Shown: positions 33,713 through 33,999 of the stretch, piece by piece
Numbering within the stretch: the stretch's first letter is position 1
Layout of the letters: every line of letters starts with the position of its first letter
From: Escherichia coli
GTDB lineage: Bacteria > Pseudomonadota > Gammaproteobacteria > Enterobacterales > Enterobacteriaceae
Length of the DNA: 64,000 nt
Assembly (NCBI RefSeq): GCF_022846255.1
Contig: NZ_AP025682.1
Strand: one strand, 5' to 3'
Notes under the pieces: generated by a model
Seen by the model: the letters and a program-made list of their open reading frames with translations, nothing else
Database searches by the model: none
Told to the model about the DNA's origin: nothing
Translations under genes and position numbers: made by a program

Positions 33713-33732
33713 ATCAGCCTCCTTTTGCTTAA

Positions 33733-33746
33733 TTAGATATATCTAA
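33733..33746. promoter_or_regulatory. Palindrome TTAGATATATCTAA near yqjI start; candidate YqjI operator (second copy at 33963..33976)
   Basis: Perfect 14-bp palindrome 20 nt upstream of yqjI ATG; near-identical TTAGATATATCTGA sits about 25 nt upstream of yqjH ATG. Confidence 0.5.
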
Positions 33747-33812
33747 TTTATATCTGACATGAGCATTACTGCAAGTACAAAAATGATTTTTAAACGCAGG
33801 TTTACTCAACAT

Positions 33813-33846
33813 GTAGGCCGGATAAGGCGTTCACGCCGCATCCGAC
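33813..33846. repeat. REP element within yqjI-yqjH intergenic region
   Basis: GTAGGCCGGATAAGGCGTTCACGCCGCATCCGAC matches REP consensus; a further short inverted repeat GATAAGA-N9-TCTTATC at 33864..33886. Confidence 0.6.
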
Positions 33847-33930
33847 ATTGAGCAATGATGCTTGATAAGAGGTTGCACGTCTTATCAGACTATAGACATA
33901 TCAGTGCTACAAATCGCTTGCATTTATCAT

Positions 33931-33950
33931 GATTAACAATCATTATCATT
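33931..33950. promoter_or_regulatory. Fur-box-like sequence upstream of yqjH
   Basis: GATTAACAATCATTATCATT resembles Fur consensus GATAATGATAATCATTATC; sits in the yqjH promoter region. Confidence 0.5.
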
Positions 33951-33999
33951 TACGAAAATTATTTAGATATATCTGATTACCATCACGAAGGCGATAACA

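Follow-up and report, generated by a model that had tools for sequence, protein, structure and literature searches.

The 64-kb stretch of DNA analysed here (the window) is from Escherichia coli and contains, at 33713-33999, a 287-bp spacer that is 100% identical to that of strain CFSAN061771. The spacer is flanked by two divergent genes, nfeR (yqjI) and nfeF (yqjH), whose assignment draws on the open reading frames, the RefSeq annotation and Pfam. Both gene names are given by RefSeq in the identical strain and in K-12. The start codon of nfeR occupies 33712-33710 on the minus strand, and the ATG of nfeF lies at 34000. NfeR carries a PadR domain at residues 67-136 (56.6 bits against a gathering score of 27, E = 2.5e-15), while the NCBIfam models of PadR subfamilies all remain under their cut-offs on this protein. 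NfeF carries the Pfam domains FAD_binding_9 and SIP. Upstream of the pair lies aer, and downstream of it lie ileX, mug and rpoD. Between E. coli and E. albertii (loci L004 and L005), NfeR is 99% identical and the adjacent NfeF only 91%; for a regulator next to its target, this degree of conservation is unusual. Elsewhere in the window, a SIB RNA, the antitoxin of an Ibs/Sib pair, scores 142 bits at 55224-55373, and an FMN riboswitch, presumably the ribB leader, scores 121 bits at 58840-58988. Table 1 collects the features of the locus.

Table 1. Genes and control elements at the nfeR-nfeF locus, in window coordinates.
Feature	Coordinates	Strand	Description	Basis
nfeR (yqjI) CDS	33089..33712	-	207 aa, PadR-family repressor with His/Cys-rich N-terminal extension	ORF, RefSeq, Pfam
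nfeR Shine-Dalgarno	33718..33723	-	AGGAGG, putative	read from the sequence
NfeR operator, site II	33731..33748		18-bp perfect palindrome AATTAGATA-TATCTAATT; 14-bp core 33733-33746	repeat search; same in K-12
nfeR promoter, predicted	33747..33774	-	sigma-70, TTGCAG-16-TATAAA; -35 at 33774-33769, -10 at 33752-33747	read by eye
Third half-site	33749..33757		TATATCTGA; 11 bp (one helical turn) past the right half of site II	repeat search
A/T-rich block	33779..33794		AAAAATGATTTTTAAA; upstream of the nfeR -35	alignments
REP1	33816..33846	+	one broken stem pair in the window strain (GGC to GAC)	copy at 47235, dispersed matches, hairpin
REP2	33861..33891	+	decayed second hairpin TGATAAGAGGTTGCACGTCTTATCA; BIME-like pair with REP1	naRNA4 alignment, shuffles, hairpin
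Fur box	33932..33950		ATTAACAATCATTATCATT; 7-1-7 core 33934-33948; overlaps predicted nfeF -35 and spacer	learned Fur matrix
nfeF promoter, predicted	33933..33962	+	sigma-70, TTAACA-18-AATTAT; -35 at 33933-33938, -10 at 33957-33962	consensus scan
NfeR operator, site I	33963..33976		TTAGATATATCTGA	pattern search; same in K-12 and 9 other aligned Escherichia alleles
nfeF (yqjH) CDS	34000..34764	+	254 aa, NADPH-dependent ferric-chelate (siderophore) reductase	ORF, RefSeq, Pfam

A preliminary description of this spacer had reported a perfect palindrome, TTAGATATATCTAA, 20 nt from the nfeR start codon, and a near-copy, TTAGATATATCTGA, about 25 nt from the start of nfeF. Both palindromes are present; the first lies exactly as described, and the second ends 23 nt from the ATG. 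On the nfeR side the symmetry extends further than first described, giving a perfect palindrome of 18 bp. The two sites are the sole matches with up to two mismatches in the 64 kb, with 0.07 expected from shuffled sequences. A third half-site follows site II and overlaps both the -10 hexamer and the spacer of the predicted nfeR promoter. Pairwise alignment shows the two outer segments of the spacer, 33713-33757 and 33961-33999, to be identical to those of K-12, the strain of the binding studies.

Each of the two predicted -10 hexamers directly abuts a GATATATC-centred palindrome, site II in the case of nfeR and site I in the case of nfeF. The consensus promoter scan by itself does not rise above chance (one promoter found, 1.3 expected). 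For K-12, the entries for these two genes in the RpoD-holoenzyme genomic-SELEX table of Shimada et al. (PMC3946193) give TTAACA-18-TTTTAT for yqjH and TTGCAA-16-TATAAA for yqjI, and on alignment to the window these promoters fall at the same positions as the predicted ones. Relative to the predicted transcription starts, a repressor bound at either palindrome would cover about -5 to +10, or, on a slightly narrower estimate, the stretch between the -10 edge and about +8, and such a layout of operator and promoter is typical of steric repression. The A/T-rich block upstream of the nfeR -35, which may serve as an UP element, is invariant in 10 aligned Escherichia alleles; one more E. coli allele (L006) shows a G-to-A change in it.

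The preliminary description also placed a Fur-like box, GATTAACAATCATTATCATT, at 33931-33950, 12 nt before the palindrome on the nfeF side, and the box is found there. The classical 19-bp Fur consensus, GATAATGATAATCATTATC, has no match with three or fewer mismatches anywhere in the window; by our own count the box agrees with it at 13 of 19 positions, leaving six mismatches. The 7-1-7 form of the consensus, TGATAATnATTATCA, fits 33934-33948 at 12 of 14 positions (two mismatches), and 0.12 matches of this quality would be expected. A 19-bp Fur matrix was learned de novo by expectation-maximisation, without a consensus seed, from 12 upstream regions of well-established Fur-repressed K-12 genes (fepA/fes, fepD/entS, fepB/entC, fhuA, fecI, cirA, fiu, tonB, exbB, ryhB, fhuE and fhuF). 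With this matrix, 33932-33950 is the highest of the 127,964 positions scored in the window, at 21.8 bits; the runner-up reaches 13.8 bits, and no other position attains 15. When each training region was left out in turn, the known Fur promoters scored 10.4-26.6 bits and the nfeF site 20.9-22.8 bits under the same matrices. A position-weight-matrix scan, proposed at the outset as a check on the box, therefore does not put it below threshold, as 21.8 bits falls inside the range of the known sites.

Other signals picked up by the Fur searches were set aside. A matrix match at 23282 lies inside a gene, and one at 58813, beside the FMN riboswitch, depends on a consensus-seeded matrix and drops to 4.3 bits with the unseeded one. 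The sole other 7-1-7 match in the window with two or fewer mismatches, TGATGATCATCATCA at 61057-61071, scores 11.2 bits with the learned matrix and is probably due to chance. The A/T-rich block near the nfeR promoter scores just 8.6 bits.

For comparison with other genera, a single genome was scanned for each species. This gave 32 loci, 31 of them with a divergent nfeF, drawn from Escherichia, Citrobacter, Enterobacter, Lelliottia, Superficieibacter and Raoultella. The GATATATC core at both operators is invariant in all 32 regions (the window and the 31 loci, six genera), while the neighbouring bases drift. The palindromes thus display dyad symmetry as well as conservation above the surrounding sequence, as would be expected of NfeR operators. 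At the +11 offset, nearly all orthologous loci carry a half-site resembling TATATCTAA, and a few carry more diverged versions such as TATATCGTA and TGTATCTAA; on the nfeR side of most loci from Enterobacter and Lelliottia there is also a fourth one, again in register. The Fur-box core, AATCATTATCAT, is likewise invariant in 32 of 32 regions, except that a single Enterobacter locus has C for its final T, and in every region the box precedes site I by 29-31 bp. Both operators, together with the additional half-site and the Fur box, make up a fixed module across six enterobacterial genera, a modestly new observation.

The DNA between the operators follows a different pattern. The operator-to-operator distance amounts to 230, 217-219, 172-185, 166 or 96-97 bp, and these values share no helical phase across genera; a common phase between the operators, considered as a possible constraint, is ruled out by them. 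In Escherichia the middle of the spacer measures 144-157 bp at 42-44% G+C, and in the other genera it is shorter and rich in A/T: 25 bp in Lelliottia and most Enterobacter, and otherwise 93-113 bp with a G+C content of 24-34%. The loci with operators 96-97 bp apart, found in most Enterobacter and in Lelliottia (L016, L018-L024, L026 and L028), can be regarded as a minimal version of the control region. In these loci the nfeR-side operator takes the form of three to four half-sites that keep an 11-bp register, GATATATCTAAACTATATCTAAGATATAT.

The central part of the Escherichia spacer is occupied by repetitive DNA. The preliminary description had noted a full REP unit embedded between the promoters. 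A REP, GCCGGATAAGGCGTTCACGCCGCATCCGAC, does lie at 33817-33846, with a single mismatch to a canonical copy at 47235; calling it the full unit is incomplete, as the alignment to naRNA4 reveals a second, decayed REP behind it. The REP1 segment meets the usual description of a REP/BIME element, being a GC-rich imperfect palindrome of about 30-35 bp outside genes with many dispersed copies: it occurs at no fewer than 178,115 places in 5,425 genomes, with a median of at least 36 per E. coli genome. Its hairpin has a predicted free energy of -8.7 kcal/mol (z-score -2.6), and that of REP2 a z-score of -3.8. The local alignment between REP2 and REP1 was matched by 2 of 2000 shuffles. Taken together, 33816-33891 aligns over the full length of the Rfam model naRNA4 (RF02564) with 51.7 bits (E = 1.9e-8), a score below the gathering score of 59.5. 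The equivalent pair scores 46.5 bits in K-12 and 34.1 bits in a 276-bp allele.

Related elements occur outside the spacer as well. At 47234-47304 the window contains a bona fide naRNA4, a REP325-type nucleoid-associated RNA, with 83.1 bits, and the REP in the spacer has its canonical counterpart in the first REP of this element. In K-12, a REP pair of 125 bp with an naRNA4 match of 46.7 bits sits where the ends of aer and nfeR converge (locus L003, 4404-4556); the window strain is without this pair and has a spacer of only 28 bp at that place (33061-33088). The K-12 RefSeq feature table lists no REP and no binding-site features at the nfeR-nfeF spacer.

The REP pair is located between the two predicted -35 hexamers and therefore outside both predicted transcripts. 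It is present in E. coli, E. albertii and Escherichia sp. E1V33, at a position it has held since before the split of E. coli and E. albertii, and is absent from all 27 non-Escherichia loci, which keep the operators and the Fur box. An early indication from a REP regular expression, that other Escherichia are without the REP, was discarded, as alignment shows that variant REPs are present in them. The stem of REP1 has one to four broken pairs in 7 of 10 Escherichia alleles, none of them compensated, and its free energy ranges from -12.2 to -1.3 kcal/mol. A role of the REP in mRNA stability, which had been suggested initially, is not supported: the pair is outside both predicted mRNAs, it is missing outside Escherichia, and the decay of its stem goes uncompensated. 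A role in DNA topology, suggested along with it, is unlikely. We judge the two-REP element to be an Escherichia-specific insertion of a mobile repeat, a tolerated and decaying passenger that stands outside the conserved logic of the region.

The distribution of polymorphism within E. coli differs along the spacer. Pairwise differences among eight E. coli alleles average 0.019 for nfeR and 0.027 for nfeF, 0.026-0.039 for the site-bearing ends of the spacer, 0.108 for REP1 and 0.17-0.20 for the rest of the central spacer. The centre of the spacer (33758-33915) is accordingly 7-10 times more polymorphic than the flanking genes. Across 5,421 genomes, the identity of the spacer to that of the window ranges from 84% to 100%. 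Two deep haplotypes can be recognised, of 287 bp and of 276-277 bp, which are set apart by an indel of 11 bp immediately behind REP1 and by most of REP2; the shorter one resembles the alleles of E. albertii and Escherichia sp. E1V33. The spacers of the window and K-12 differ by 28 substitutions, all within 33758-33960, which leave the operators and the Fur box unchanged.

These observations allow us to weigh a working role for the REP pair against the passenger reading. The two-REP unit could be an architectural element that binds HU, IHF or gyrase, or that extrudes as a cruciform or an naRNA-like species, and in this way aids communication between operators 230 bp apart or insulates the two promoters from one another. 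The full-length naRNA4 alignment at 51.7 bits is compatible with such a role, as are the maintenance of the pair at the same place in three Escherichia lineages (E. coli, E. albertii and Escherichia sp. E1V33), the size of the main length polymorphism after REP1, which at 11 bp is about one helical turn, and the title of the Wang 2014 paper, which speaks of two communicating sites. However, five other genera have both operators and the Fur box without any REP, and in Enterobacter the operators are just 96-97 bp apart. The breaks in the stem are uncompensated and bring it down to -1.3 kcal/mol in some E. coli alleles, the element is the most polymorphic part of the locus, and the operator distance follows no common helical phase across genera. 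Mutagenesis of the REPs reportedly did not abolish regulation by YqjI in the 2014 work either. We consequently regard an architectural role as improbable and retain the reading of the REP pair as a passenger.

A related idea is that the 287-bp and 276-277-bp haplotypes could tune looping or communication between the NfeR operators and so give rise to heritable differences between E. coli lineages in the strength of nickel and iron control over the siderophore reductase; we hold this to be quite improbable. The comparative points could still guide studies of natural variation in the cross-talk between nickel and iron.

The regulation of this gene pair has been described before. According to a Klebsiella paper that cites the two primary studies (Wang 2011 and Wang 2014, as summarised in PMC7981267), NfeR represses nfeF and nickel relieves the repression. 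The literature also places nfeF in the Fur regulon and describes nfeR as induced by nickel. In the Klebsiella paper, deletion of nfeR is stated to raise nfeF expression 85-fold (PMC7981267). The titles of the primary papers place YqjI binding sites in the yqjH-yqjI spacer, and that of the 2014 paper states that two YqjI sites communicate (PMC7981267). For Salmonella, another report gives a 3.8-fold derepression of yqjH in a fur mutant (PMC3212961). A genomic-SELEX study of FlhDC lists, among its K-12 entries, a type-A peak of intensity 74 at the yqjH/yqjI spacer, which hints at a third regulator; the motif quoted with this entry appears to lie in coding sequence (PMC9962212).

Beyond these summaries, some details of the 2014 experiments bear directly on the present comparison. 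The footprint at the yqjI promoter is said to be extended, and both sites are said to be needed for full repression. A shorter spacer reportedly disturbs the regulation, and the REP elements, when mutated, were reportedly found not to be required for regulation by YqjI. The third half-site next to site II and the comparative data on the REP pair fit this account.

With this background, two further alternatives concern the protein-binding sites themselves. The palindromes might be targets of some other factor, or A/T-rich promoter sequence that happens to be symmetric, rather than operators for NfeR. Each of them does abut a -10 hexamer, where A/T-rich DNA is common, and an FlhDC genomic-SELEX peak maps to the K-12 spacer. 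Several observations speak for NfeR: the same 14-mer stands at both promoters and nowhere else in the 64 kb, its 8-bp core stays the same in all 32 regions although the bases around it drift, and the sites always travel with the nfeR gene. The 85-fold rise of nfeF upon nfeR deletion in Klebsiella and the YqjI sites named in the titles of the primary papers point in the same direction, and assignment of the palindromes to anything but NfeR is scarcely credible. Just as remote is the notion that the Fur-like sequence owes its A/T-rich match to chance and that Fur acts on nfeF only indirectly, since the six mismatches to the classical consensus that speak for it are set against the top score in the window (about 8 bits over the runner-up), a score within the range of left-out known Fur promoters, a core kept unchanged and at a constant offset throughout six genera, and Fur-dependent expression reported in both E. 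coli and Salmonella.

The dual control of yqjH by Fur in response to iron and by YqjI in response to nickel, which the preliminary description had proposed, is supported: the sites are invariant relative to K-12, they are kept in six genera, and the box passes the Fur matrix. We are highly confident that the spacer represents the published nfeR-nfeF switch, built from two back-to-back sigma-70 promoters with an NfeR operator each, Fur acting on nfeF, and the REP pair as a passenger. From the literature and the arrangement of the sites, a dimer of the PadR-type NfeR would repress both promoters. NfeR would leave its operators when nickel, which its His/Cys-rich N-terminus presumably senses, is in excess, and Fe2+-Fur would independently block the nfeF promoter. 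As NfeR and Fur would both block this promoter, full output of the reductase would be expected only at low iron or high nickel.

Dual control by Fur and NfeR, the two NfeR sites and the REP elements in the spacer were already known from the 2011 and 2014 papers. As a discovery, the nfeR-nfeF spacer thus matters little, having been the subject of two dedicated papers. What is new is modest and comprises the module shared across genera, the recognition of the insert as a decaying pair of REPs, and the hypervariability in the middle of the spacer.

Among known systems, the closest is the K-12 yqjH-yqjI spacer itself (Wang, Wu & Outten 2011, J Bacteriol 193:563; Wang et al. 2014, J Bacteriol 196:3199), which has the same gene pair in the same orientation and the same length of 287 bp. 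Base-for-base identity extends over the two palindromes, the half-site next to site II, the Fur box and the -35 hexamers of both promoters, and the -10 hexamers, REP1 and REP2 are at the same positions. The two spacers differ in the nfeF -10 hexamer, which is TTTTAT in K-12 and AATTAT in the window, and in the one stem pair of REP1 that is broken in the window strain.

The REP pair resembles REP/BIME elements and naRNA4 (RF02564, REP325-type) in having two GC-rich imperfect palindromes about 14 nt apart that align to the whole model, and in the dispersal of REP1. It differs from naRNA4 in scoring 51.7 bits, below 59.5, and in the heavy decay of REP2 toward A/T.

The Fur box falls in the same score range as other E. 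coli Fur boxes (fepA/fes, fhuA, cirA, fhuF, ryhB and others) and, like them, overlaps the -35 and the spacer of the promoter, here a predicted one, that it would repress. In contrast to these, its left half is weak (TTAACA instead of a GATAAT-like sequence), and the nfeF promoter additionally carries the operator of a second, independent repressor.

NfeR shares with the PadR/padC and LmrR/lmrCD systems a winged-helix PadR domain, a palindromic operator that overlaps the promoter, autoregulation and control of an adjacent gene. The operators of PadR and LmrR follow the pattern ATGT-N8-ACAT, whereas that of NfeR is GATATATC-centred. NfeR further differs from both proteins in its His/Cys-rich N-terminal extension of about 60 residues and in responding to nickel rather than to an organic ligand.
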